A stretch of DNA of 64,000 bases. It comes from an uncultured delta proteobacterium. Its GTDB lineage: Bacteria > Myxococcota_A > Polyangia > Polyangiales > Polyangiaceae. The notes under the pieces are model-generated. The model saw only the letters and a list, made by a program, of their open reading frames with translations. It had not been told where the DNA came from and did not search any database. Made by a program: the position numbers and the translations under genes. The stretch spans positions 288,001-352,000 of the forward strand of contig CAVOKF010000008.1 in NCBI GenBank assembly GCA_963696385.1, given 5' to 3'. Within the stretch, counting starts at the first letter, position 1. Every line of letters starts with the position of its first letter. Positions 34,182 to 62,993 of the stretch are shown piece after piece.

Positions 34182-35582
34182 TTGACGGTCGACCACGCGC
34201 CGGTGTCCCATCGCGTTCGCGTGATTTGCACGACATGCGGCCGGGACAATCCGAGTCACCTCATTTTCTGTCAGGAGTGCGGCCAGAAGTTGGCCACGCG
34301 CCTCGCGACGCCGACGCCTCCTCAGGGGATCGCGGCGGTCGGTCCCACGCCGGAGGCGGCGGCGGCTCGTAGCCAGAGCTCCGTATCGCAACGACCGGCG
34401 GCGCCCAACATTCAATTTTCCCGCCGCGACGAGTTGCCAGCGCCAGCCGACAATCGGAGCGTGTGCCCGCTTTGCGGCAGCCGCAATCAGCGTGGCTTGC
34501 GCTTCTGCGTCACGTGCGGGCACCTCTTGGCGCAACGCGTCTCCGGGGGCAGCCCAGCGCTCGAGGCCACCGCGGTTTCGGCCCCCCCAGTCCGGCCGCC
34601 TTCGGCGCCGGCTGCCGTCATCGCCCCGAACCGCGTCGTGCAACTCGACGATCCGTCGCCGGCTGCGTTGGAGACCCGCATCTGTCCGCGCTGCCACGGC
34701 CTGCTCGAGGGGGCGGGACAGTTCTGCCGCATTTGCGGCGCATCCATCGCCGACGCCGCACCAATCGACCTGCGGCCGGCGTCGCCGGCACGACCCGACA
34801 CCGTACGACCGCAAGGCCCCGCGCCCGCGGCGTCGACCGTCCCCGTGTCCGCGCCGCGGACGGGACGCGTCCGCCTCGTTCTCATCGCGCGTGACGGCGG
34901 CGAAGGACCGAGCTACCCGGTCGGCGACACGACCGACATCGGGCGGACGGAAGGTCACATCGTCATTGGCGACGATCCCTACATCTCTCCGCGTCACGCG
35001 CGCATTTCGGTGCGCGACGGCACGCACTTTCTACGCGACCTCGGAACGACCAACGGAGTCTATTTGCGTATCCCGTACTCGGGCGACCTCGATCGGGGCT
35101 TGGTGCTCGATCCCGAGCAAGAGCTGGGAGATCAAGAGTTGTTCCTGGTTGGACAACAGGTGCTAAGGTTTGAGGTCGTGAAGCACGCGGAAGAGGGGTT
35201 CGGCGTGGCCTCGGACAATGGGACGTTGCTCTTCGGTACGCCCGCAGCGCCCCGCTATGCGCGGCTTAGCCAGCGCACGGTCGAGGGCGTGTCGCGCGAT
35301 GTCTTTCACGTGCACAAAACCGAGACCGTCATCGGGCGAGAATCGGGCGATATCGTATTCGCCGACGATCCCTTCCTTTCTCGCCGCCACGCCGTCATCC
35401 GGGTCCGCCCCGGCGCCAGCTTTGCGAGAGATGCCCGCCGCTTCACGCTGGCCGACCTTGGCTCCTCCAACGGGACGTTCCTGCAGGTGCGAACCGAGGT
35501 TGCTCTGCGTCCGGGCAGTCACTTCCGCATCGGCCAGCAGCTCTTCCGCCTCGACGTCGACGTGAACCGCACCGGTGAATGA
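34182..35582 (+). CDS. Double-zinc-ribbon plus tandem FHA domain protein
   Basis: Three CxxC...CxxC ribbons; two FHA domains with intact GR, SxxH and NG motifs. Confidence 0.9.
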   Translation: MTVDHAPVSHRVRVICTTCGRDNPSHLIFCQECGQKLATRLATPTPPQGIAAVGPTPEAAAARSQSSVSQRPAAPNIQFSRRDELPAPADNRSVCPLCGSRNQRGLRFCVTCGHLLAQRVSGGSPALEATAVSAPPVRPPSAPAAVIAPNRVVQLDDPSPAALETRICPRCHGLLEGAGQFCRICGASIADAAPIDLRPASPARPDTVRPQGPAPAASTVPVSAPRTGRVRLVLIARDGGEGPSYPVGDTTDIGRTEGHIVIGDDPYISPRHARISVRDGTHFLRDLGTTNGVYLRIPYSGDLDRGLVLDPEQELGDQELFLVGQQVLRFEVVKHAEEGFGVASDNGTLLFGTPAAPRYARLSQRTVEGVSRDVFHVHKTETVIGRESGDIVFADDPFLSRRHAVIRVRPGASFARDARRFTLADLGSSNGTFLQVRTEVALRPGSHFRIGQQLFRLDVDVNRTGE

Positions 35583-47057: not shown

Positions 47058-48134
47058 ATGTCCCGACTGCGAGCCTCCGATCACCTGTTCGCCCGCCCGG
47101 ACGACGTGGCGGAGGGATCGGTCGTAACAGCGCTGCGCGTGCCGCCGGAGGTGGCCGGCGGACGCCTCGACGTCTTCGTCCAGAGTCAGTTGCACCGAAC
47201 GAGCCGGACGCGGGCGCAGGCCATCGTCCGCGCCAGTGCCTACGACGACAGCGGCCGGCGCCTACGACCGAACGACCGCGTGCGGCCCGATCAACTCGTA
47301 CTGCTCTGGCGGGCGCCCTGGGACGAGACCCCGGTGCCGGTCGAACTGCCCACCCTCTTTGAGGACGAACACCTGTTGGCGGTGTTCAAACCGGCTCTTC
47401 TGCCGGTGCACCCGACGGCGAGGTACCACAAGAATACGCTCATCAAATTGCTGCAGGCCGCGCGCCCAGACTGCGGATTCCTGTCTTTGGGGCATCGTCT
47501 CGATCGGGAGACGAGCGGCGTCATCCTGATCTCCAAGAGTCGCGCGTGCGATCGGGCATTGAAAAAGCAACTCGAGTCCCGCGAAGGAATCGAAAAAACC
47601 TACGTTGCGTTGACCTGGGGCGTCCCCGACCGCGGCGACGGCGCGCGGGCATTTCGTTACGAACGACGGATCGAGCTCGATCCGACGCACCCGCTGCGCG
47701 TCAAGATGCGCGTGCGCGACGCGCCCGACGCACTGCTCGCCGTGACCCACGTCGAGGTGGCGGCGGTTCGACAGGCGACGTCCGGGCGGCGTTATGCGTG
47801 GGTACGCTGCGGGCTGGAAACCGGTCGGCAGCACCAGATCCGGGTGCACTTGGCGTCGCTCGGCGCCCCTGTGGTCGGAGACAAGCTCTACGGTCCGGAC
47901 GACCAGGCGTTCGCGCGTGCGGCCGACGGAGCCCTGACGAGCGACGATTTGAAACACCTGGAGATCGCGCGCCACGCGCTGCACGCCTCCCGTCTGGATC
48001 TCGTTCACCCGATGACGGGTGCGCGCCTCTCGATCGAGGCGCCATTGCCGGCGGACATGGCCGACTTCTGGGGGTCGCTCAAAGCCCCCGCGGAACTTTG
48101 TCGAGATCGAGCTGGTCGAGCGCCACACGAATGA
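47058..48134 (+). CDS. RluA/RluD-family pseudouridine synthase
   Basis: S4-like N-terminus; HRLDRETSG, TGRQHQIRVH and GDKLYG motifs. Confidence 0.94.
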   Translation: MSRLRASDHLFARPDDVAEGSVVTALRVPPEVAGGRLDVFVQSQLHRTSRTRAQAIVRASAYDDSGRRLRPNDRVRPDQLVLLWRAPWDETPVPVELPTLFEDEHLLAVFKPALLPVHPTARYHKNTLIKLLQAARPDCGFLSLGHRLDRETSGVILISKSRACDRALKKQLESREGIEKTYVALTWGVPDRGDGARAFRYERRIELDPTHPLRVKMRVRDAPDALLAVTHVEVAAVRQATSGRRYAWVRCGLETGRQHQIRVHLASLGAPVVGDKLYGPDDQAFARAADGALTSDDLKHLEIARHALHASRLDLVHPMTGARLSIEAPLPADMADFWGSLKAPAELCRDRAGRAPHE

Positions 48135-48384
48135 GAGCGCTTCGGCTCGCCTTCGTCACGCCGCGCGCCTTGAGCTCTTCGACCAGGGCATCGAGATGCT
48201 CCAGATCCCGGTTGTAGAGCGAAATGCAAATGACCTTGTAGTGAGCCGGCTTCGGCTCGGCCTTGCGCGACCGCGCGGCACGTGGCTCGGGGGCATAGAA
48301 CGCGCCCGAAAGGACGCCCTGCACTTCGTCCGCCTCGAGCACCCGCGCCGCGCCCAGCCCAGGTTCTTCTTCTCGCGCCGCCAT
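48079..48384 (-). CDS. Small ribbon-helix-helix-like protein, ParA partner
   Basis: Starts 19 nt after the parA stop. Strand KVICISLY followed by two helices (LEHLDALVEELK, SRSALIRVAL). Confidence 0.75.
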   Translation of the reverse strand: MAAREEEPGLGAARVLEADEVQGVLSGAFYAPEPRAARSRKAEPKPAHYKVICISLYNRDLEHLDALVEELKARGVTKASRSALIRVALDQLDLDKVPRGL

Positions 48385-48403
48385 CCTCGTCCTCGCTCTC
48401 CTG

Positions 48404-49573
48404 TCAGGTTCCGACCGCAACCTTCAGCTGGGGATCGGGCCCATCGACCAGCAGGTCGACGATGCGCCGATAGTCTTCCGACGCGTTCGAGTCGGGCGCA
48501 AATTCGAATATGGTCTTTCCCTGCGCCGGAGCCTCTTTGAGCCGGATCGCTTGCCGGATCGGGGGCAACACGCGATGTCCGAAGTGTTCCTTGAGCGCGT
48601 CGAGCGAGTCTCGGCAGATGCGAGCGCGCGAGTCGTAAAATGTCGGCAAAACGCCGTGGATCTGGACGGGGTGATGCAGCAGGGCGTTCACGTTCTTCAC
48701 GGTCTTGATGACCTGCCGCACGCCGACCAAAGATAGGAAGTCGCATGCGACGGGAACGACGATGGCGTCCGCCGCGACCAATGCGTTCTGGTTCATCAAC
48801 GACAGCGACGGCGAGCAATCGAGCACCACGACGTCGTACGCATCGAAGGCGGGGGCAAGCCGGTCGCGCAAGAGTCGGTCTCGATTCTGCCGCCCCGCGA
48901 GGTAAAGCTCGGCGGCGGCGAGGGTCTCGTTGGAAGCCACCAGGTCGAGGTTCGGTCGGACTCGCACCGCGGCGTCGGTGGGACGGACGCCCATGACGAG
49001 AACGTGGTAGAGCGTCTTTTCGGCTTTTGCGCCGAGTGAGACACTGACGTTGCCCTGCGAGTCGGTGTCGACGAGCAGCACCCGCAAGCCGCGCGCCGCG
49101 AAGCCCGCCGCCAGACTCACGGAGGTCGTGGTCTTGCCGGTCCCCCCCTTGTGATTGAAGACCGCGAGCCGGGCAGGCGCGGCCATCCGAACGCCCGTCG
49201 CGGAACCGATGGAAGGGCTCGTCGCGGCCGCGGGCGGATCGACCGCCACGGCGGCCGGGCCGCACGGAGGCGCGCCGGCAGCCCCCAGCCGCGCGCCCTC
49301 GGCCTCCGCCAGGATTTGGGTCCTGCATTCTTCGGAGCACGCATGGTGCAATTCGCCGCGCACGCGAACGACCTGACGAACGAGCTCGACCCGAAAGCGA
49401 GTTCGGCACGCGGAGCACGTAGCGCCGCCGGTGGTTTCGCCGCGCACGACCTTTCCGTGGCAATCGTGCGAGCAGTAGAATGCGAAGCCACCTTCGCGCT
49501 CTTCCATCTGGTAGCGGAACTGCACGTCGAACCGCTTCCCGCACACGCTGCAGCTCTCGGTCAATCCGGCCAT
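48404..49573 (-). CDS. ParA/Soj-family ATPase with two N-terminal TRASH/YHS-like Cys4 modules
   Basis: KGGTGKTT, DTDSQGN, LDCSPS and EAP motifs; CSVC...YCSHDC and CSAC...ACSEEC. Confidence 0.9.
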   Translation of the reverse strand: MAGLTESCSVCGKRFDVQFRYQMEEREGGFAFYCSHDCHGKVVRGETTGGATCSACRTRFRVELVRQVVRVRGELHHACSEECRTQILAEAEGARLGAAGAPPCGPAAVAVDPPAAATSPSIGSATGVRMAAPARLAVFNHKGGTGKTTTSVSLAAGFAARGLRVLLVDTDSQGNVSVSLGAKAEKTLYHVLVMGVRPTDAAVRVRPNLDLVASNETLAAAELYLAGRQNRDRLLRDRLAPAFDAYDVVVLDCSPSLSLMNQNALVAADAIVVPVACDFLSLVGVRQVIKTVKNVNALLHHPVQIHGVLPTFYDSRARICRDSLDALKEHFGHRVLPPIRQAIRLKEAPAQGKTIFEFAPDSNASEDYRRIVDLLVDGPDPQLKVAVGT

Positions 49574-49636
49574 CGTGACTCGTCACTAGCCACGGCCAGG
49601 GCCGGTGGGCCAAATTTGATGTTGGTTCGAATCCAA

Positions 49637-51193
49637 TCAATGTCGGAAGTGGCGCACTCCCGTGAACACCATGGCGACGCCCATGGCGTCCGCGGCCGCC
49701 ACCACCTCGGCATCTCGCACGCTGCCGCCCGGCTGGGCGATGGCCGTCGCTCCCGCCCGCGCCGCCGCTTCGACGCCGTCGGAAAACGGAAAGAAGGCGT
49801 CCGAGGCAAGCACACTGCCTTTCGCGTTCAGCCCGGCTTTTTCGCAGGCGATCTGAACCGACACGACACGCGACATCTGACCGGCCCCCACCCCGACGGT
49901 GACCTCGCCGCGCGCCAGGACAATCGCATTCGACTTGACGTGCTTGCAGACGCGCCAGGCAAATTCCAAAGATGCGAGCTCTTCCGCCGTCGGGGATCGC
50001 GCCGTCACGACCTTGCCGCGCAGCACCTCACCGGCCGCCGTCGCGTCGCGATCCTGAACGACAACCCCGCCGCCCACGCGCTTGTACGTGATCGCAGCCT
50101 GATTCGGACTGAGCCATCCTCGCGTCGCCAGGAGCCGCAAGTTCTTCTTGGTGCGCAAGAGGTCGAGAGCCGACGTCCCGAACGACGGCGCGATGACGCA
50201 CTCGAGAAAGGTCTCGCTCAGAGCGCGCGCCGTTTCCTCGTCGACCTCTCGGTTCAAGGCCACGATTCCCCCGTACGCGCTCACCGCATCGGCATCGCGG
50301 GCCTTCCGGTACGCATCGACGAGAGATCCGGCCACCGCGACCCCCGAAGGGTTCGTGTGCTTGACGACGACGGCGGCGGGGCGATCGAACTCACGAACGG
50401 CCTCGAGAGCGGCATCGGCGTCGACCAAGTTGTTGAAGCTCAGCTCCTTGCCGCCCGCGCCGACGCTTTCGGCCACGGCGATGGACCCGGCCGGAGCATG
50501 CGGCTCCACGTAAAAGGCGCCCGACTGATGAGGGTTCTCCCCGTAGCGCAGCAGGTATGCCCGTTCGAACACGGCGTGGAGGATGCCCGGAAATCGCGTG
50601 GGCGTGCCGCCGTCGACCGAGGAAGACAGGGTTCCGCTGATGGCGGCGTCGTAGGCGGCCGTGTGGGCGAACGCCTTCGCGGCGAGTTCGGAGCGAGTCT
50701 CCCGAGTCGTGTCGCCGTGCCGGGCGATCTCGTCCAAGACGCGCGGGTAATCGGCCGGGGCGCACACGACCGTGACACGCGCGTGATTCTTGGCGGCGGA
50801 GCGAATCATCGCCGGTCCGCCGATATCGATGTTCTCGATGATCTCGTCACGGGTCGAGGCCGGATCGGAGGCGACCCGTTCGAACGGATACATGTTGACG
50901 ACGACCAAGTCGATCTCGCGGCCGCCCAAACGCTGAAGATCTCCGGCGTCCCGCGCTCCGCGCGACAGAATGCCCCCGTGCACGCGCGGGTGCAGCGTTT
51001 TCACCCGCCCGTCCATCACCTCGGGCGATCCCGTATAGCTCTCGACGGTCTCGACCGGTACGCCCTCGGCAACCAGAGCCTTGGCCGTTCCGCCGCTCGA
51101 CAGCAGGCGCACTCCACGATCGGCCAGAGCGCGCGCAAAGGGGACCAAGCCCGACTTATCGGTGACGGACAGGAGCGCGGTACGGATGGCCAT
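49637..51193 (-). CDS. purH: Bifunctional AICAR transformylase/IMP cyclohydrolase
   Basis: [36 protein letters not shown] and RHFRH motifs. Confidence 0.98.
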
Positions 51194-51240: not shown

Positions 51241-51945
51241 TCACTCGATTTCGGCCGCTTCGATGACCCCGCCGTCGGGGATCTCGAGGGTGGCGCTCTC
51301 GGCCACCTCGAGACTCTCCTCGTCCTCCTCCGGTTCTTCGGAGTCATCGTCGCAGTCGTCTTCGCTTGCCACGAGCAGAGGAAGGCGCCGCTTGCCGATG
51401 GGCCCCTCGTCGACGTAGTCGCGCAGGTTGGTCATATCGCGAAGAGCCGCGAGCTTGGCCAGTCCCTTGACTTCGACCTGCCGGATCCGCTCTCGCGTAA
51501 GATTCATGATGGCGCCGACTTCTTCCAGAGTCGTGCCGCCCCGATCGGCGATGTCGAGCGCGCACGTCTCGGACATTTCCCACACATCGAGATCGGGGAA
51601 ATTCAACTTGATCGCGCCGGTTCGAGCCGACACGTCCAAATAAAGATGATGTTGGCACGATACGAAGGGGCATGGGCGCTCGCCCCCTATGCATTCCGCT
51701 CGAGTCTGGGGTCGCACCGCTTCATCCATGTCCGGATAAAGGAGCCGACCGAGTTCGAGCTCGCGCTTGGTCATCCGCTTGACGCTGATCGTCCTCGCCC
51801 GGACGGCACGTTTGCGTCGAGAGCGACGTTGCTCGCGCGTGACGGGCGCCGGACTCTCCGCCGCCTGCAGGGCAAGGGCCCCGTCCGTCTCCATGTACGT
51901 TACGGTCGACTGCGGCGCTTCCTTCGGATCGTCGTTGGGGTCCAT
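51241..51945 (-). CDS. Stand-alone sigma-70 region-4 HTH protein with Cys/His module
   Basis: [36 protein letters not shown]...C; acidic tail. Confidence 0.85.
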
Positions 51946-52320
51946 GCGCGGTTCCTCCCGGCCCATCGCCGACAAACAGCTCCCGTACGGGCCCGTGCGA
52001 AGGGAATTCGCCGCCGACCCGGGGATCGTGAATCCACGGCCATGGCCCGACTTCCGTGACTGATTCACGTGTGCGGCATCCACCGCAAATCGGACCGATC
52101 GAGCGATCGGTGGCGACATTCGCCGAGCGATTGCTCGAATTGCTTTGCACCCTAAAGCAGTCGAAATATCGCGGTCAATCCATCATCGAACTTTTTTTTG
52201 CGCTTTTCCATTATGGAACTCGTTTCGCGCCTTTAGATCGTTGGCGTGACAAACAATGTCCCTGCATGGAATCGCGAAAACGCGCCCGAGGGCGTCTCTC
52301 TTCGCCGGCGCCGCCCTCGC

Positions 52321-52479
52321 GCCGCGGGCCGCGCGGGGTCGGACGCAGGCCACGCCGCGGGCCGCGCGGGGTCGGACGCAGGCCACGCCGCAGGCCGCGC
52401 GGGGTCGGACGCGGGCCACGCCGCGGGCCGCGCGGGGTCGGACGCAGGCCACGCCGCAGGCCGCGCGGGGTCGGACGCG
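52321..52479. repeat. 33-bp tandem repeat, about 4.8 copies
   Basis: Unit GCCGC(G/A)GGCCGCGCGGGGTCGGACGC(A/G)GGCCAC; no spacers. Confidence 0.92.
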
Positions 52480-53482: not shown

Positions 53483-55717
53483 TCATCGGCCGGCCAGCGC
53501 GCGGCAGTCGCTGACGTTCGCCGTCCGAGCTTGCTCGACGCAGTGGCGGTAGGCCTCCTGTGCGGCGATCAGGTTGCCGGTCGCCTGAAACGCAGCACCG
53601 AGGGTCAGCCAACCATCGGCGTCCTCCGGATTGGCTCGGACCGCTTGCCGGGCCAGATCCATGGCCCGCTCGGTCGCACCGAGGGCCAACGCGTGATTCG
53701 CATCTCGCACGAGCGTGGCGCTCGCCGTCACCGGTGCGGGCGAGGTGTCGACCGGGCTGGGCTGGACCTCGGCGGCACGCGGCATCCCCCCGGGGTTGAT
53801 CGGGGCCGCCGCCCGGTGAGGCGTCTCCGCCGCGGGCGGAACCTCCGAGGCTTCCGGTGCGACAGACAGGTCTTCCGGCGCAAGGGCCGCCGGGGAGGCG
53901 CTTGCGGCGGCCGGGGCCTGCGAGCCACTCGGTTCCGGCGGCTGCGACGCAACCGGCCTCGCAGGATCGGCCGGCCATGCGATGGTCGTTCGGGAACGAG
54001 CCTGATCGGCGGCGGCTTGCTGACGGGCCTGGAGCGTCCGGAGGCCCGCCACGACCGCCAGCAACGACGCGAGGCCCAGAGCGCCGAGTACGGCCCACTT
54101 GGTCTTGCCGCTGAGCCGACGCGGGACCCCTGCGACGTGCTCGTCGGGGGCGCGGGGGTCGCGGTGGTAAGCGACGGCGGCGACCGGCGGCGGCTGCTCC
54201 GACTCGGCGTCGAACCATGCGGAGTCGCCCAGCGCGGGCTCGTCCAGTCCGGGCGCCCCCGCATCCGAGGCCATGGCAGGGACCGGGCCCGGCGCCGCAT
54301 CGGGCGGATGCGCGTCAAGCGCCGTCGCCGCTTGTTCGCGTCGTTTCGGGGGGGCCGCGGCAGCCACGGGAGCCGCGGCAGGCGCAGAAGCCACGGCCGG
54401 CTCCAGAGGCACGAGAGCCAGCGACGGCGCCGGCGGCACGCGAGGCGCGGCAGCCGCGGCGCCATTGAAGGACGCGGGCCCCGCCGCGGCGGCCGGATGG
54501 GCCGAAACGGCGACGGACGGGTCCACGAACGACGGACCCGCAAAGGGTTCGACCCGGGTACCGAAGGCGAGCACCGCAGCGGCCCGATCGGCGGGCGCTT
54601 CGACCGCGGGCGGCGGTGGCCGCGCCGATGCCGGTTCGGAGGCGGGAACCACGGCCATATCGCCGCTCGACGGACCGTTCGGCCTGACGAGGTCGCGAAC
54701 GACCGTCGCCTCCACGTATCCTTCGTCGACCGCGGGCAACGGGACATCGACCTCGGGGGGTGAGTCGGGTTTCGGAACGAGCAAACCCTCGAAGTAAAGC
54801 TTCGTGATGGTCGACAACGTCGACAAATCCTCGAACGGCGAATCATCGACCACGTCGGCCAACGACCGGCCCGAGTCGAACAGCCGGAGTATGCCGTTGA
54901 GTTCGTCGGGAATCTCGTTCAAGCGCTCCAAGAGCTGCCGGTGGTCGATCTGGAACACCGTCGAAAGCGGCGGCAGCTGCTCGCAAAGTCGGCCCCATTC
55001 GTCGACCCGACGCATGCCTTCCATCAGGGTCGCTTGGGTGGACCCGCCGATCACGTCCTCGTTCGCAATGGGTCGGAACTCGACCTCGAAGGCCGCCTCG
55101 TTCCAAATGAGCGCGCGATAGATGGCTTCCTCCCCGCGCAAGCGTCCGAGCTCGGCATCGACCACCTTGCCATCGCGGAAGTAGATGCGAGCCTCGTGCG
55201 CGCCTCCGCGCAGGTTCACCACCCCGCTTTTGCGCGAGACTTCGAACGTCTGCAGCAGATCGACGACGGCCATGTCCTGCGTAGACCCGGTGAAGCGCGT
55301 CCGTCCCGACGGGGTCGCCTTGGTGGCCGCGATGTTTTCCTGCGTTCGCCGAGCGAGCAGAAGGTTGACGCGTGCGATGAGCTCGCGCACGAATATCGGT
55401 TTGGTCAGGTAGTCTTCGACCCCGAGCTCGAGTCCTCGAATCTTGTCCTCGATCGACTTTTGGCTGGTTAGAAATACGATGGGAATCGAAGCCCACTCCG
55501 GCCGCTCTTTGAGCTTTCGCACGAGCGTGTAGCCGTCGAGTTTCGGCAAGCGCGTGTCGGTCAGCACGAGGTCGGGCGTGAGCGACTCGATCTTCGCGAG
55601 CGCGTCGAGGCCATCGATCGCAGTGGTCACGCTGTAGCCCGCCTTCTTCAGGCTGACTTCGAGGACGCGGACGCTCCGCGGATCGGCGTCGACGAGGAGC
55701 AGCTTCTGCTTGGCCAC
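53483..55717 (-). CDS. Receiver + DUF4388 + Pro/Ala linker + TM + TPR protein
   Basis: LVLTDTRLP and [18 protein letters not shown] and [11 protein letters not shown] (DUF4388-like); [19 protein letters not shown]-terminal TPR. Confidence 0.85.
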
Positions 55718-55793: not shown

Positions 55794-57368
<1,575 letters not shown>

Positions 57369-57483
57369 GCGCAGGTTAGCTCACACCCGAGGCCCAATCG
57401 GCGCATCGGAAAAGGGAACGTCGCGACCGCACGATTTCGGCTCCGCCGGAAAGGGAGCGACCCAACGCGGTATGCTGAGGATC

Positions 57484-58614
57484 GTGGAGTTGCCCATCGA
57501 CGTCGACAAGCTCTCGCCGGTTGCCCGAAAGATTTTGGCACCCGCCGCCCCAGGCCCGATGCGGCAAATGGCGGCCAAGGGGCTCGCCCCGGGCCTGAAA
57601 CCAGGCGATGCGCTGACGGTCATCGTAGTCCTGTCGGAGTCGACCGACTCGGCGCTCGCGGCAGCGGCGAAGGCCACGCTGGACGCTCTGCCGGCGCCGC
57701 TCTTGGGCGGTGCGCTGGCGGGGGACCTCGCGCCGGGCGTGATCGCCGCGGTAGCCCTTCGCTACGTACATAACCACGCGGTGATGGAGAAGATCTTGGC
57801 TCATCCGGCCATTTCCCCGGATACCGTCGCGGCGATCGCGACCGATGCGAGCGAGCTCGTGGCCGAGCTCGTGGCGACCAACGAACAGAAGCTGCTCGCG
57901 AATCCGCTGATCATCGAGAAGCTTTACATGAACAAGGCGACGCGGATGTCGACCGCGGATCGCATCCTCGAGCTGGCAGTCCGCAACAAGATCGAGCTTC
58001 AGGGAATTCCCGCTTACAAGGAGGCGGCGGCGGCGATCGGCCAGGAACTCATCGCCGAACCCACCCCAGAGCCCACGCCCGACGACATTCACTTCATCGA
58101 AACGGCCGCCGTCGCGGATCAAACGCCGGTGAACCCGGAGCTCGAAGACACGCATCGTCTCGACGAAGAGACGGGCGACGAAGTGGTCGAGGATCGGTTT
58201 CTTCCTCTGAACGCCCGCCTGGCGATGATGACGATTTCGCAAAAGATCCGCCGCGCCATGCTGGGGACCGCGAGCGAGCGCCTGCTTCTGGTCCGTGACT
58301 CGAACCGGCTCGTCGCTCAAGCGGCCATCAAGAGCCCGGCCATTCAAGAAAACGAAGTCGTGCGCATCAGCGGCAGCCGCAACGTCTCGGAGGACGTGCT
58401 GCGAACGATTGCGCTAGACCGAGAATGGACGCGAGCCCATCAAATCAAGCTGAACCTCGTACAGAACCCTCGCACGCCCTTTGCGTTCGCGGCACGACTC
58501 GTCCAGCATCTGCGCGAGCACGAGCTCAAGGCACTGGCGCGAAGCAAGAACGTCACGGGAGCCATCGCTACCGCAGCCCGACAGCAGCTCGCACGACGCA
58601 CCATGCCGGACTGA
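57484..58614 (+). CDS. Hypothetical helical-repeat (HEAT/LRV-like) protein
   Basis: LVRDSNRLVAQAAIKSP and LVQNPRTP; TATGCT lies 7 nt before GTG 57484. Confidence 0.78.
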   Translation: MELPIDVDKLSPVARKILAPAAPGPMRQMAAKGLAPGLKPGDALTVIVVLSESTDSALAAAAKATLDALPAPLLGGALAGDLAPGVIAAVALRYVHNHAVMEKILAHPAISPDTVAAIATDASELVAELVATNEQKLLANPLIIEKLYMNKATRMSTADRILELAVRNKIELQGIPAYKEAAAAIGQELIAEPTPEPTPDDIHFIETAAVADQTPVNPELEDTHRLDEETGDEVVEDRFLPLNARLAMMTISQKIRRAMLGTASERLLLVRDSNRLVAQAAIKSPAIQENEVVRISGSRNVSEDVLRTIALDREWTRAHQIKLNLVQNPRTPFAFAARLVQHLREHELKALARSKNVTGAIATAARQQLARRTMPD

Positions 58615-58777
58615 GCGTGCGGCTGAGAGCCTCGGGTGACGGCCGGCCGCGGCTCTTCCATCGGCGTCCGCACACGGGCGCAGCATGTGATGCGCCGGGG
58701 GGGCATCGACGGAAAAGGGGGTCCGTATTGGCAGCGCCATCCTTAATCGGACTGAACGAAGCCCGTATGATCGGCTC

Positions 58778-60223
58778 GTGCGGATAGGCATCGGGTTGCT
58801 CGTCGCGGCGGTCATCGGCTTGCCTTCCGTCGTGCTGGCCGGGTCCGGTTCTCTCGACGGCGCGGCCATCGTCCGGGGCGCCGGACGGGTCAAGCTCGAC
58901 GGGGCTCACGAGTGGCGCGACACGTCGACCGCCGACATCCTGCCCACGGGCATTACCGTCGAAGCCGCGAGCGAGCAGCCCCTCGAGATGACGTTGCCCG
59001 ATGGCGTCACCGTCACGCTCGAACCGCGAGCGCTGGCGCGTTGGATGCCTGGCGGCAAGTTGCCGAGCGAGATCAACCACTGGACGCACGGGTACCACTT
59101 GCTGCTCGAAGAGGGGGAACTCGAGGTTCGTATGCCACCGGGGCAGAAGGGGGCCCACGCATTCCTCGTCTCGACGAAGGCCGGAACGCTGACCGACTGG
59201 CGCGGGCAGTTGCACGTGAGCGTCCACCGCGACGCAACCTCGGCCGCAATCTACGAGGGCGCCCTGGTCGTTGGATCGAACGGTCAAGGGTTTCCCGTCT
59301 ACGACGGCGCGGGCATTCTCATGCGACGCGGTGTCAACCCCGACAAGACTCGAGGGATCCCGGCATCGCCGCAATGGAGCGCGACGAGCGGCGGCTTCGC
59401 CATCATGGCGAGCGACGCAGAGGCCCCCGTCGATTTGACCTGGAGCCCCGTTGCCAAGGCAGCCGAGTACCGGGTCGAGGTCGCCCTGGATCCCAGCATG
59501 GTTCGGGTGACCGAGCGCGCCGTGACCCGAGAGCCCCACTTCACGACGACGCCTCAGAGCGCGTCCGGGCCTCGATGGGTGCATGTCCGAGCGGTCGGGA
59601 CAGAAGGGATCGTCGGCGCCTGGTCGGCTCCCCGGGCATTGCGTGTGATCCGCTACAAAATGCCGCAGGACGCGTTCGTGGCGCGCGACGGCGCGATCGT
59701 CTTGGCCAAGGGCGAGCGTCTCGCGCTGCAGGACGCCGAGGGGATCGAGGTCGCATCCGAGAGCGTACGCGACCTCGCGCCCCGGTTCGCTGTGCCGCTC
59801 TATTGGGGCCGACTGAGCGGCCCATTGCCGCTCGCCGAAGACGCACCGCTACGGATCGTTCACTTGCGCGACCCGGTGCTCGGCGCGGAGGCGCAGTTGG
59901 TTCTTGCCCGTCGCGAGCTGCGTGCCGACGTGGCGCTCGCGCCAACGAACGCGCGGTGGCCGGCCGACCCCATCGACGCACGCGTCGAGGTGCGCGATCC
60001 GTCCGGTCGAATCGACGTTTCGAGCGAGAACGTCACCGTCGAGACCACCCTCGATTTGACCCCCCTCGGGGTTCGTTGGCAACGGGTGGGCAACACCTGG
60101 CGCGGGCGCATCGACCCCCGTCTCATCGGCGATCCCTCCGTCGTGCGGGTCGTCGTTCGGGACTCGCGCGGTTCCGAAATCGGCCGCGGCTTCGTGGAGC
60201 TCGAACCGGTGGCTCTCAAGTAG
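58778..60223 (+). CDS. Exported FecR-like/Fn3-like beta-rich protein
   Basis: Signal peptide; FecR-like LEEGEL...IYEG; Fn3-like LTWSPV...YRVEVA. Confidence 0.65.
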   Translation: MRIGIGLLVAAVIGLPSVVLAGSGSLDGAAIVRGAGRVKLDGAHEWRDTSTADILPTGITVEAASEQPLEMTLPDGVTVTLEPRALARWMPGGKLPSEINHWTHGYHLLLEEGELEVRMPPGQKGAHAFLVSTKAGTLTDWRGQLHVSVHRDATSAAIYEGALVVGSNGQGFPVYDGAGILMRRGVNPDKTRGIPASPQWSATSGGFAIMASDAEAPVDLTWSPVAKAAEYRVEVALDPSMVRVTERAVTREPHFTTTPQSASGPRWVHVRAVGTEGIVGAWSAPRALRVIRYKMPQDAFVARDGAIVLAKGERLALQDAEGIEVASESVRDLAPRFAVPLYWGRLSGPLPLAEDAPLRIVHLRDPVLGAEAQLVLARRELRADVALAPTNARWPADPIDARVEVRDPSGRIDVSSENVTVETTLDLTPLGVRWQRVGNTWRGRIDPRLIGDPSVVRVVVRDSRGSEIGRGFVELEPVALK

Positions 60224-60296
60224 CCGATCGGCCCTGCCTTCCTGCTGAGCTTTCGGAGCGTTTCCGTTTCGGTGCCTTTATCGTACGTTCGTTGCC

Positions 60297-62993
60297 ATGG
60301 TCCGCTGCCTTCGCTGCGCTTGCCTTTGCGAGGAGGCCCATGCGTATTGCTTCGCATGCGGTGGCGAGCTGCTCGATTCGGCGCGTGCGACGCCCCAAGA
60401 CACGCTCGTCGGCCGCGAGCTACCCGGCGGATATCGAATCACGTGCCTCATCGGCGTCGGGGGCATGGGACGCGTTTACTGTGCCGAGCAGATCGCCCTC
60501 GGGCGCCTGGTCGCCGTCAAAGTCGTGCACCCGGAGTTCGCCGACGACGAGCTCGCCGCCGCGCGCTTCGTCAACGAGGCGCGAACCGCCAGCCGCTTGA
60601 ATCACCCGAATTCAGTCGCCATTTTCGATTTCGGCATGACGCAAGACGGTCTGCCCTACATCGTCATGGAATACCTGAAAGGTCAGGATCTCGGACGCCT
60701 GGCCCACGCGCGGACCGCATTGCCCTTGAGGCGAATCGTCGACATCCTGCGCCAGACTCTCGCCGCGCTCGACGAGGCCCATGCACTCGGCATCGTCCAC
60801 CGAGACCTCAAGCCCGACAACATCGTGCTCGAGCCGCTGCGGTCCGGCCTCGACATGGTCAAGGTCGTCGACTTCGGGTTGGCCAAGGTCGTCCGCGGCG
60901 ACATCCCCTCCCCGCCCAGGTTCGTGAGCCTTCCCGGTCTGGTGTGCGGCACCCCGGAGTACATGAGCCCCGAGCAGGCTCGAGGCCTTGCACTCGACGG
61001 TCGCAGCGATCTCTACGCGTTGGGCATCGTGCTCTACGAGTTGCTCACAGGGTGCCTGCCGTTTGCCGGCGATGGACCTGCGGGGACGCTGATGCTGCAC
61101 CTGACGGAGCTCGCGATCGATCCGCGCACCATCGCGCCCGAACGGGCCATCCCGGCCGCGTTCGCCGAGGTGGCCATGCACGCCATCGCCAAGTCCCCCG
61201 AAGACCGATTTCAGACGGCGCGCGCCTTCTCGGAGGCGCTGGAGAATGCGCTCTTCGACAGCGAAGGCGGGCACGGCGTCGCCTCGGCACCCCCGACGCC
61301 GATCCGATGCGAACGGTGCGGCGGGACGAGCGCCGTAAGCCAGAAGTTTTGCGGGGGGTGCGGAGCGTCGATGGCCTGGACGGAGCGCGATGCCTACGGA
61401 CCGACCGTACCGCCGCCCGCGTCCGGGTCGGGCGACACGCACACACGCGCGACGTCACCCGCGCACGAGGCGGTGGTGGCTTCCCGACGGTCGGCCTTGC
61501 CCCTGCTGTCGCGAGAAGACGCCATCCGATGGTTCGAAGCCCGACGTGAAGATTCGGCAGTTCTGCCGGCCGCAGCGCACCTGGTCGGCGAAGCTGGGAT
61601 GGGCAAGACGCGGCTTTTGGACTCGATGGCCGCTCGTTGGTCGTCGCGAGGCGACCTCGTCGTCACGGTCGGCACCAATCCGAGCTGGGCGAAGGTCGGC
61701 GACCACGCGGTGAGACAAGCCGTCCGCGCCCTGGCCGGCTTGGCCGATGGCCCATCCGGCGTGAACGAATGGAGCCACGCGAGCTCGCAAGCGGCTCAGG
61801 GTCTCGATGAGATCTTCGGGACACCGGGCCGATCCCGCCGGCCGCCTGCCGAGCGACGCCTCGTCGTGGCCGAGGCGTTGCGCTGGAGTCTCGAGCGGGC
61901 GGCCGAGCGCGCCGGACGTGCGCGTGTCGTTCTGGCCGTCGACGATCTCGATTTCATCGACGGCACGAGCCGCAACGCCTTCGGCGATCTGCTGGCCGAA
62001 CCGCCACCCGTGCCCGCGCTCATCGTCGTGACGTACACGACCGGAACGCGTCCCGTTGGAGACCCCGTCGCCGGTGAAGTCTGGCGACTGCAGCCGCTGC
62101 CGTACGAATCCTTCGCTCACGAGTTTTCGACGCGAACCCTCGTGCCTCACGTTGCGCTCTCGCCGCTTCACGTCGAGCAGCTGCTGGCGTGGGCGGGAGA
62201 ATGCAACGAGCCTCCGCCCGAGCGGCTGGTGGAAATCATTGCGGCTCGCGCCGAGCGACTGCCGCGCGACGCACGCCACGCGCTGCAGGCCATGGCCGTC
62301 TGGGGAGACGCCGTCGGCCGGGACCTGCTGCAAGAGCTTCTGCCCGCGACGGTCGAAGTCGAATCGGCACTGGAGGCGCTGCATCGAGCCGGCATCGCAC
62401 GTGCCGTGGACGGCGGATTTCAAATTGCGCACCCGCTCGTTCGGAGCGTCGTCTTTTCGACGACCCCCGCCGGTCGAAAGCGAGAGCTCTTTGCGCGCGC
62501 CGCGGAGCTCTGCCCCGATGCCCCGTTGGAGGTGCGCGCGCGACAGGCCGTGCACGCCGGCAGCGCCCTGGAGGCGTTGGCCCTACTGGATGCGCTCAGC
62601 GCAGAGCGCGCCGCAAACGCGGATCTCGCAGGCAGCGTCAGCGCTCTGCGTCAAGCGTTGGACGTCGCCCGACGCGAGCTGCACCGCGGCGAGCTCGACG
62701 ACCCGACGGACGCGGTGCTCGTATTCGCGCGAAAGCTCGCCGAAGCGCTCGGAGCCTCTCAACGGTGGTCCGACGCCGAGGGCATCTTGAACGAGGCTCT
62801 CGGCACCGCCGCCCCTGCAAGCGGCCATCGAGCTCACCTGCTCGGCGCCCTGGCTCGAGTCGCAAATGCCCGCGCCCATCCGCGCGAGGCTCGACGGTAT
62901 CTCGACGAAGCGATGCGTGTCGCGCGCCAGTCGGACGCGCGTGAACTGCTCCCCATCCTGGAGCAACTCGACAAATCCATCGCCGTCGCTTGA
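60297..62993 (+). CDS. Ser/Thr kinase with zinc ribbons, P-loop ATPase domain and TPR-like tail
   Basis: HRDLKPDN, DFG and GTPEYMSPE; GEAGMGKT and LAVDD; CxxC pairs. Confidence 0.9.
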   Translation: MVRCLRCACLCEEAHAYCFACGGELLDSARATPQDTLVGRELPGGYRITCLIGVGGMGRVYCAEQIALGRLVAVKVVHPEFADDELAAARFVNEARTASRLNHPNSVAIFDFGMTQDGLPYIVMEYLKGQDLGRLAHARTALPLRRIVDILRQTLAALDEAHALGIVHRDLKPDNIVLEPLRSGLDMVKVVDFGLAKVVRGDIPSPPRFVSLPGLVCGTPEYMSPEQARGLALDGRSDLYALGIVLYELLTGCLPFAGDGPAGTLMLHLTELAIDPRTIAPERAIPAAFAEVAMHAIAKSPEDRFQTARAFSEALENALFDSEGGHGVASAPPTPIRCERCGGTSAVSQKFCGGCGASMAWTERDAYGPTVPPPASGSGDTHTRATSPAHEAVVASRRSALPLLSREDAIRWFEARREDSAVLPAAAHLVGEAGMGKTRLLDSMAARWSSRGDLVVTVGTNPSWAKVGDHAVRQAVRALAGLADGPSGVNEWSHASSQAAQGLDEIFGTPGRSRRPPAERRLVVAEALRWSLERAAERAGRARVVLAVDDLDFIDGTSRNAFGDLLAEPPPVPALIVVTYTTGTRPVGDPVAGEVWRLQPLPYESFAHEFSTRTLVPHVALSPLHVEQLLAWAGECNEPPPERLVEIIAARAERLPRDARHALQAMAVWGDAVGRDLLQELLPATVEVESALEALHRAGIARAVDGGFQIAHPLVRSVVFSTTPAGRKRELFARAAELCPDAPLEVRARQAVHAGSALEALALLDALSAERAANADLAGSVSALRQALDVARRELHRGELDDPTDAVLVFARKLAEALGASQRWSDAEGILNEALGTAAPASGHRAHLLGALARVANARAHPREARRYLDEAMRVARQSDARELLPILEQLDKSIAVA

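Follow-up and report, generated by a model that had tools for sequence, protein, structure and literature searches.

The locus and its gene pair

The window analysed here is a stretch of 64,000 nucleotides (contig CAVOKF010000008.1) of high-GC chromosomal DNA, 64–71% GC, from a soil myxobacterium of the class Polyangia. Its minus strand encodes a ParA-like ATPase that bears a zinc-finger domain at its N-terminus and, downstream of it, a small protein of 101 amino acids that we refer to as the partner. The two genes form a module that is real, clade-wide and uncharacterised, and that may serve to position a cargo inside the cell.

48404..49573, minus strand: gene of the zinc-finger ParA ATPase, 389 amino acids, including the stop codon (open reading frame and translation)
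48079..48384, minus strand: partner gene, 101 amino acids from the ATG, including the stop codon (open reading frame and translation)

The 101-residue reading frame begins 19 nt after the ParA-like gene, as a first-pass annotation made from the sequence alone had reported, and its ATG is preceded by GAGGA. A TTG located 36 nt upstream of this ATG is an alternative start, which would give a protein of 113 amino acids. Directly upstream of the ParA-like gene, 63 nt away, lies purH. A Pfam scan of the 35 predicted genes of the window revealed no ParB, replication or mobile-element domain, in line with the earlier statement that the pair sits behind purH with no parB, replicon or mobile gene nearby. 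The other 33 predicted genes are housekeeping genes or belong to typical myxobacterial signalling.

The partner gene and a convergent gene of the rluA pseudouridine synthase family (47058–48134, plus strand) overlap at their 3' ends by 56 nt (48079–48134). The tblastn matches to the two encoded proteins likewise overlap in several close relatives, e.g. in loci L001, L003 and L010.

Pairing, synteny and conservation

When 185,579 species genomes were scanned with the partner alignment, at least 600 stretches matched; at least 288 of them were confirmed, and the analysis continued with the best 80. All locus counts given below refer to these best 80 of the 288 confirmed loci, compared by tblastn with the proteins of the window. 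The loci are labelled Polyangiaceae, Polyangiales, Polyangium, Sorangium, Byssovorax or Labilithrix, and one is a metagenome-assembled genome (MAG) labelled Nannocystis exedens. The remaining labels are unclassified Myxococcales, Myxococcota, Deltaproteobacteria, Pseudomonadota or Proteobacteria, and "uncultured bacterium" MAGs. One locus, L001, is 98% identical to the window.

ParA domain directly upstream of the partner, same strand: 80/80 loci
Zinc-finger region present: 70/70 loci with enough upstream DNA, the others being truncated at the ends of contigs
purH upstream, same strand: 52/62 loci, 41 of them within 400 nt
Convergent rluA-like gene downstream: 58/74 loci
glgA downstream: 46/65 loci

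The co-occurrence of the two genes, on which the earlier proposal of a two-gene system depended, is thus found without exception in these loci, the ParA gene always lying upstream. The distance from one gene to the other varies, from an overlap of 4 nt to a gap of about 90 nt. Breakpoints of inversions flank either the pair (L013) or purH plus the pair (L066 and L071). Because inversions break on either side, and because the pair persists where purH, the rluA-like gene or glgA are inverted or absent, we regard it as a conserved unit. No match to the partner or to the zinc-finger region was found among 72,556 plasmids, and within these loci the ParA-like protein and its partner form an obligate, conserved chromosomal pair.

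Conservation was expressed as the median identity to the window in the 40 loci where all six genes are present:

ATPase domain: 76.9%
purH: 72.3%
Partner: 67.8%, biased upward because the loci were chosen by partner similarity
glgA: 63.1%
Zinc-finger region: 62.9%
rluA-like gene: 61.8%

The identity of the ATPase domain exceeds that of purH in 38 of these 40 loci. Both genes of the pair are under strong purifying conservation.

The ATPase domain

The C-terminal part of the larger protein is the ATPase:

48407..49183, minus strand: ParA/Soj-type ATPase domain, residues 131–389 (Pfam AAA_31 and CbiA; full-length Soj alignment)
49127–49150, minus strand: deviant Walker A motif KGGTGKTT, residues 142–149, intact and invariant in 43 sequences

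Both the motif and a profile above its cutoff identify the protein as a ParA/MinD (deviant Walker A) ATPase, which confirms the earlier call of a ParA with an intact deviant Walker A. Pfam AAA_31 matches residues 136–301 with an E value of 1.1e-47 (162.7 bits, cutoff 27), and CbiA matches with an E value of 1.2e-22 (80.7 bits, cutoff 25.4). The nearest solved protein is Soj of T. thermophilus (1wcv; E 9e-45, residues 132–373), to which the domain can be aligned end to end (E 3.7e-45, 157 bits). Other near solved chains are 4pfs, a chain of 273 residues deposited as "Cobyrinic Acid a,c-diamide synthase" (E 1.7e-41), 8ray (E 5e-40) and 6iub, deposited as "SpoOJ regulator (Soj)" (E 3.5e-32). Far more distant are McdA (3e-16) and the delta protein of pSM19035 (1.2e-12), and ParF is absent from the PDB matches at E<=1e-10. 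None of the NCBIfam equivalog cutoffs is reached, ParA_partition (NF041546) scoring 98.1 bits against a cutoff of 180. By sequence, the ATPase is Soj-like and not ParF-like, and the analogy to ParF/ParG cited in the first-pass annotation is not supported for this protein.

R316, in the motif YDSRA, aligns with the arginine of YDGRT in Soj, which we take to be the DNA-binding arginine of that protein, and it is at least 90% conserved in the alignment of 43 sequences. The C-terminus of the ATPase is variable, with no conserved amphipathic helix. Among 8000 candidates scored, 2998 relatives of the ParA-like protein were found at E<=0.001, the best 120 being 73–96% identical over 96–100% of the length. 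The names of the relatives are solely "chromosome partitioning protein" or "ParA family protein", and wherever an organism is named it belongs to the Polyangiaceae. The clusters of distant family members carry almost no taxonomy.

The zinc-finger domain and linker

Ahead of the ATPase domain lie two modules of four cysteines each and a linker of low complexity:

49460..49552, minus strand: zinc module 1, residues 8–38, C8-x2-C11-x22-C34-S35-x2-C38; cysteines invariant, AlphaFold2 (AF2) model with a beta-hairpin plus helix
49325..49417, minus strand: zinc module 2, residues 53–83, C53-x2-C56-x22-C79-S80-x2-C83; cysteines invariant, weak zf-FCS match
49184..49285, minus strand: Pro/Ala-rich low-complexity linker, residues about 97–130 (from the sequence)

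Two tandem CxxC-CSxxC modules with a flexible linker had been described earlier, and this anatomy stands. The central spacing is 22 residues in both modules, and all eight cysteines are invariant across 43 aligned family members (36–78% identical to the window protein), far beyond chance. F15, Q22 and F60, together with the Walker A residues, are also invariant in this alignment. The linker, about residues 91–133 in a wider delimitation, abounds in the residues Pro, Ala, Gly, Ser and Thr; in the 43 relatives it measures 6–219 residues, with a median length of 69 and a median fraction of these five residues of 0.64.

An exhaustive HMMER search with residues 1–130 against 1.84 billion cluster representatives returned only 103 proteins at E<=0.001. 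When the 40 longer of these were scanned with Pfam, AAA_31 was found in 28 and no family in seven. One is a read-through from purH, which agrees with the purH synteny described above. The other four carry only other families, namely small zinc-ribbon motifs in P0323 and Ig-like, CARDB or Myb-type domains in P0325, P0326 and P0343. As judged by these matches, the N-terminal domain appears to be almost confined to fusions with ParA.

The best Pfam match of the modules is zf-FCS (PF06467) over residues 51–85, with an E value of 0.0035 and 17.6 bits, below the cutoff of 22.4; the same family lies above its cutoff in 5 of the 40 relatives (22.6–25.9 bits). The region stays below the curated cutoff of every Pfam and NCBIfam family. 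Its cysteine spacing fits what we take to be the TRASH consensus, C-x2-C-x19-22-C-x3-C, and both modules carry the F/Y/A-C-S motif from which zf-FCS has its name. An AF2 model of residues 1–97, built from 48 sequences, shows two similar hairpin-plus-helix modules with a mean predicted local distance difference test (pLDDT) score of 76.7. A Foldseek search of the PDB with this model gave nothing at E<=0.001. The top local matches were chains of ribosomal protein eL24 (41–48 columns, root-mean-square deviation 2.1–3.5), which are weak (probability 0.66–0.99, E 0.12–0.9), followed by tandem LIM domains at low probability. Atlas feature scores for the domain do not exceed 0.81 and are leads only, the named ones being zf-FCS and Arc_trans_TRASH. 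The modules are thus probably TRASH/FCS-like Cys4 modules by motif and by predicted fold, and not proven members of the family. Of the earlier designation as TRASH modules, the cysteine spacing is borne out, whereas the zf-FCS profile stays below its cutoff for the window protein.

The same cysteines could be read as metallochaperone sites. The protein would then be a metal or Fe–S trafficking NTPase of the Mrp/NBP35/ApbC kind and not a positioning ATPase. TRASH and YHS domains are tied to metal handling, and there are weak matches of the NUBPL/ApbC type (PF10609 at E 6.2e-9; ApbC at 22 bits). We consider such a function very improbable. Soj/ParA is far closer, at 157 bits against the 22 bits of ApbC (cutoff 348); invariantly spaced Cys4 sites are typical of structural zinc, and the conserved partner would be left without a role.

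The partner protein

Four segments can be distinguished in the partner, based on an alignment of 26 members that are 56–81% identical to the partner of the window:

48295..48351, minus strand: N-terminal motif aaRvLDxDEVeGVLSGaFY, residues 12–30 (26-member alignment)
48244..48294, minus strand: variable, mostly basic Pro/Arg/Lys linker, residues 31–47 (26-member alignment)
48109..48243, minus strand: strand-helix-helix-like domain, residues 48–92, with HYKVICIS, a helix at 61–73, a G-x-T-K turn and a helix at 78–91 (alignment and AF2)
48082..48108, minus strand: conserved C-terminal tail DLDKVPRGL, residues 93–101, with L94, P98 and G100 invariant

The search for relatives returned 2619 among 2637 candidates. 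The best 120 are 75–100% identical and 100–106 amino acids long, and all are named "hypothetical protein" and have no precomputed Pfam domain. The N-terminus had been described as flexible and arginine-containing. Arginine is indeed frequent in its motif, though not invariant, but the segment is not merely flexible, as it holds a conserved, net acidic motif; residues 1–31 carry a net charge of -2 to -5 in all 26 members. The linker that follows varies from 15 to 36 residues and has a median net charge of +2. Residues H48–S55 (HYKVICIS) are invariant and are followed by DLxxLDxxVxxLKxRG-x-TKAxRSALIRxAL, and the consensus of the tail is vDLDkVPrGl.

The AF2 model of the partner monomer is of low confidence (mean pLDDT 61.9). 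It contains a low-confidence helix at residues 18–26 and the two helices at 61–73 and 78–91 with pLDDT 73–85, and no strand is predicted, which is to be expected if the strand pairs only in a dimer. Of the strand-helix-helix proposed earlier, the two helices are therefore recovered by the model, whereas the strand is not, and the ribbon-helix-helix (RHH) family RHH_1 reaches 16.8 bits in the window partner, below the cutoff of 20.5. RHH_1 is the sole recurrent Pfam match, being found in 13 of the 26 members at E<0.1 (best E 0.0017) and always below the cutoff. In the Atlas, the named clusters that lie nearest to the partner are RHH_1, Antitox_RHH and CB_ParB_C, whose scores of 0.88–0.90 are leads only. 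The partner lies below the curated cutoff of every Pfam and NCBIfam family, and a scan against PHROGs gave nothing informative.

Thirteen longer proteins contain the partner, each a singleton, and those that join ParA to the partner resemble products of stop read-through or frameshift. The apparent ParA–partner fusion in L079 (5735–7279) is a frameshifted gene, and fusions were not counted as evidence of interaction. In the MAG loci L079, L044, L053 and L066 the ParA gene is broken by frameshifts, which give rise to apparent fusions or truncations and may reflect assembly errors or pseudogenes. P0357, a protein of 396 amino acids labelled Daphnia magna, starts with a complete partner sequence and continues into a region with an LTD domain; it is probably due to myxobacterial contamination of that assembly combined with a read-through gene call.

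Upstream region

One conserved element was found in front of the operon:

49587..49613, minus strand: TTGGCC-N13-15-TGxCxA, 40 nt before the ParA start codon; conserved, with a gap of 15 nt in the window

Of 59 upstream regions, each 120 nt long, 55 contain TTGGCC, with the second element at a fixed distance. In one group of loci the element lies 35–42 nt before the ATG, and in the others mostly 50–114 nt. It matches no sigma-70 consensus, and neither a consensus sigma-70 promoter nor a terminator was found for the operon. The element may be a promoter of an unfamiliar type or an operator.

This element allows a mainly transcription-regulatory role of the pair to be considered. An RHH-type repressor and an ATPase co-regulator, as in delta/omega or P1 ParA, would then act on the upstream element in autoregulation and perhaps on other genes, and the zinc fingers would provide a DNA-binding or metal-sensing input. 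Such a role would agree with an element that recurs so widely and fits no sigma-70 consensus, with the autoregulation of type Ia ParAs through their N-terminal DNA-binding domain, which is established knowledge, and with the presence of TRASH domains in archaeal metal-responsive regulators (the Atlas lead Arc_trans_TRASH scores 0.79). However, autoregulation usually accompanies partition and does not substitute for it, a complete and highly conserved Soj-like ATPase exceeds the needs of a co-repressor, and the upstream element may be a plain promoter. We find it quite unlikely that regulation is the main role of the pair, and prefer positioning.

Right after the purH stop codon, at 49611–49640, there is an imperfect palindrome around TTCGAA (plus strand GGTTCGAATCC) that resembles a tRNA T-arm. 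It was rejected as an RNA gene, as ARAGORN found no tRNA and no Rfam family matched. The palindrome is shared with L001 and is missing from more distant loci.

Proposed role of the pair

The domain anatomy, the obligate pairing, the strong conservation and the absence of a ParB gene led us to favour, with a confidence that is about even, the view that the pair is a chromosomal two-gene positioning module of the ParA type in Polyangia-type myxobacteria, as far as the labels of the best 80 of the 288 loci define that group. It would consist of a Soj-like, nucleoid-binding ATPase, a dedicated small and probably dimeric partner, and a twin Cys4 domain on a tether.

By homology to Soj, the ATPase would dimerise with ATP and bind the nucleoid non-specifically. 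The partner would be its dedicated adaptor and activator, dimerising through an RHH-like C-terminal domain that would mark the cargo, most likely a DNA site, and touching the ATPase through the N-terminal motif, the basic linker or both. Repeated rounds of binding and ATP hydrolysis would then shift the cargo or set its spacing. The linker that holds the twin TRASH/FCS-type Cys4 modules varies in length, and the modules may make a second tethered contact, to nucleic acid, to the tail of the partner or to a scaffold, in a role that can be likened to that of the N-terminal DNA-binding domain of type Ia ParAs. The binding of ATPase and partner, DNA as the cargo and the part played by the zinc fingers are inferred; gating by metal or redox state, as well as the nature of the cargo, is pure conjecture.

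Small dimeric partners are known to activate ParA/MinD ATPases via N-terminal peptides, and the activating peptides of ParB, ParG, MinE and PomX are described as N-terminal, short and positively charged, and as stronger when presented by a dimer (PMC7993993, PMC12462528). By analogy, the partner would match these activators in the position of its motif and in the logic of a dimer.

Several observations weigh against the positioning module as outlined here. The conserved N-terminal motif is net acidic in 26/26 members, whereas the known activating peptides, such as the basic tails of ParG, ParB or PomX, are positively charged (PMC7993993); the linker behind the motif has a median charge of +2. 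The first-pass annotation had also taken the partner for an RHH protein, an assignment that stays below threshold. Besides the Pfam score below its cutoff, sequence and profile searches of the PDB gave no significant match (the top one being arginine repressor at E 0.6), Foldseek with the low-confidence model gave 0 matches, and an hhalign comparison of the partner profile with E. coli MetJ yielded a probability of 0.28%. The putative strand KVICIS is more hydrophobic than is usual in a ribbon that reads DNA. An RHH fold of the partner is plausible, not demonstrated. No direct-repeat array, centromere-like site or strong palindrome was found in 47900–49800. Finally, the pairing counts cover 80 of the 288 confirmed loci and these were picked by partner similarity, so that they establish that the partner is accompanied by a ParA, and that the zinc-finger ParA is accompanied by a partner only within these loci.

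Some of these observations would suit a module that positions a non-DNA cargo, such as a storage granule, a protein cluster or a division factor, in the manner of McdAB or PomXYZ. The C-terminal domain and tail of the partner would then bind the cargo, with the zinc fingers aiding recognition. The strand of the partner is invariant and hydrophobic on both faces, its conserved tail DLDKVPRGL could bind a cargo, and centromere-like repeats were not found (47900–49800). Moreover, glgA lies downstream in 46/65 loci, and PomXYZ reportedly co-occurs in the Cystobacterineae alone (PMC7993993), which leaves the positioning systems of Polyangia open. Yet RHH is the sole recurrent family signal of the partner, the linkage to glgA is looser than that within the pair and has a convergent gene in between, no candidate cargo gene consistently adjoins the pair, and the match to McdA is far weaker than that to Soj (3e-16 vs 9e-45). 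We therefore hold a non-DNA cargo to be rather unlikely, and a DNA site to be the better candidate for what the module positions.

A more far-reaching version of the positioning module can be offered only tentatively, and we doubt it more than the module itself. According to this version, Polyangia run a second, ParB-independent, Soj-derived positioning machine, in which the RHH-like adaptor marks a chromosomal locus or other cargo and a tethered twin Cys4 sensor or anchor of TRASH type targets or gates the machine by metal, redox or a second binding partner.

Significance

ParA/MinD ATPases organise chromosomes, plasmids, organelles and division sites, and many orphan ParA systems are already known; each new ATPase–adaptor pair has so far revealed a new cargo or control principle. 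The present pair occurs within one class in at least 288 genomes, counted at species level, with an ATPase more conserved than the neighbouring enzyme of purine biosynthesis. It departs from described systems in three respects: the motor bears a zinc-finger domain on a tether, the conserved motif is acidic where a basic activating tail is usual, and the Soj-like ATPase has no ParB. We know of no description of a twin-Cys4-gated architecture for any ParA/MinD system. The first-pass annotation had likewise known of no description of its architecture, and none of a zinc-finger ParA or of the partner was found in the full-text literature, subscription journals excepted. Polyangia include the bacteria with the largest known genomes. 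If the pair functions as proposed, it would provide a handle on cell organisation in this little-studied, large-genome group, and would lend itself to testing whether a ParA motor can carry a targeting or sensing domain of its own.

Other features of the window

A gene at 51241–52119 on the minus strand encodes a protein of 292 amino acids in which sigma-70 region 4 (Pfam E 6.9e-8) is the sole domain that can be recognised, and whose C-terminal tail is acidic. In many loci a homologue of this protein is encoded close to the ParA–partner pair, and inversions have placed it on one side or the other; this closeness may be mere synteny. Between this gene and an alpha/beta hydrolase gene, at 52320–52478, lies a 33-bp tandem repeat of 4.8 copies with 96% matches, in a region with long repetitive open reading frames on both strands. 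Elsewhere, the window encodes a protein with double zinc ribbons and FHA domains (34182–35579, plus strand), a response regulator with DUF4388 and TPR repeats (53483–55717), and two Ser/Thr protein kinases, one of which has an AAA_16 domain (55797–62990). These zinc-ribbon/FHA, response-regulator and kinase genes are signalling content typical of myxobacteria.

Comparison with known systems

The cysteine modules resemble TRASH, zf-FCS (MYM-type) and eL24 in the C-x2-C-x22-C-x3-C spacing and the F/Y-C-S motif. They differ in that they remain below the Pfam cutoff, with structural E values all >=0.12, and in that they are arranged in tandem and fused to a ParA ATPase.

The partner recalls CdbA of Myxococcus xanthus, an essential, RHH-type, nucleoid-associated receptor of cyclic di-GMP. 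Both are small myxobacterial proteins, and the partner would share the RHH-type domain; CdbA has been linked to the organisation of the chromosome (PMC7156744). CdbA differs from the partner in having 67 amino acids and an N-terminal strand, in lacking the N-terminal motif and in not being encoded beside a ParA gene (PMC7156744). No entry named CdbA was listed in the PDB searches with the partner at E<=10.

In having a ParA-like ATPase that works without ParB and a partner that is small or modular and belongs to no widespread family, the pair is comparable to McdAB, PomXYZ and PpfA/TlpT. However, the partner showed no sequence relation to McdB or to PomX/PomY in any search, and McdA is a distant relative of the ATPase (3e-16). 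PomXYZ has been reported for the Cystobacterineae and not for Polyangia (PMC7993993).

The arrangement as a two-gene operon, a ParA-type ATPase followed by a small partner, is that of type Ib ParF/ParG of TP228 and of delta/omega of pSM19035. The partner would also resemble ParG and omega in its predicted layout, with an unstructured N-terminal part and a probable RHH C-terminal dimerisation domain. Unlike type Ib systems, the locus is chromosomal and clade-wide, with no plasmid match and no centromere repeats beside the operon; its ATPase is Soj-like, carries zinc fingers and has 389 amino acids, and is not of the small ParF type, and the motif of its partner is acidic.

The closest likeness of the ATPase is to chromosomal Soj/ParA of the ParABS system, with which it shares the full-length alignment of the ATPase domain, the deviant Walker A motif and an arginine at what we take to be the DNA-binding position. 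It differs from ParABS in that a ParB/Spo0J gene is found neither next to it nor elsewhere in the window, that the downstream gene encodes a 101-residue partner unrelated to ParB, that ParA_partition scores 98 against a cutoff of 180, and that the ATPase carries an additional twin zinc-finger domain and linker.

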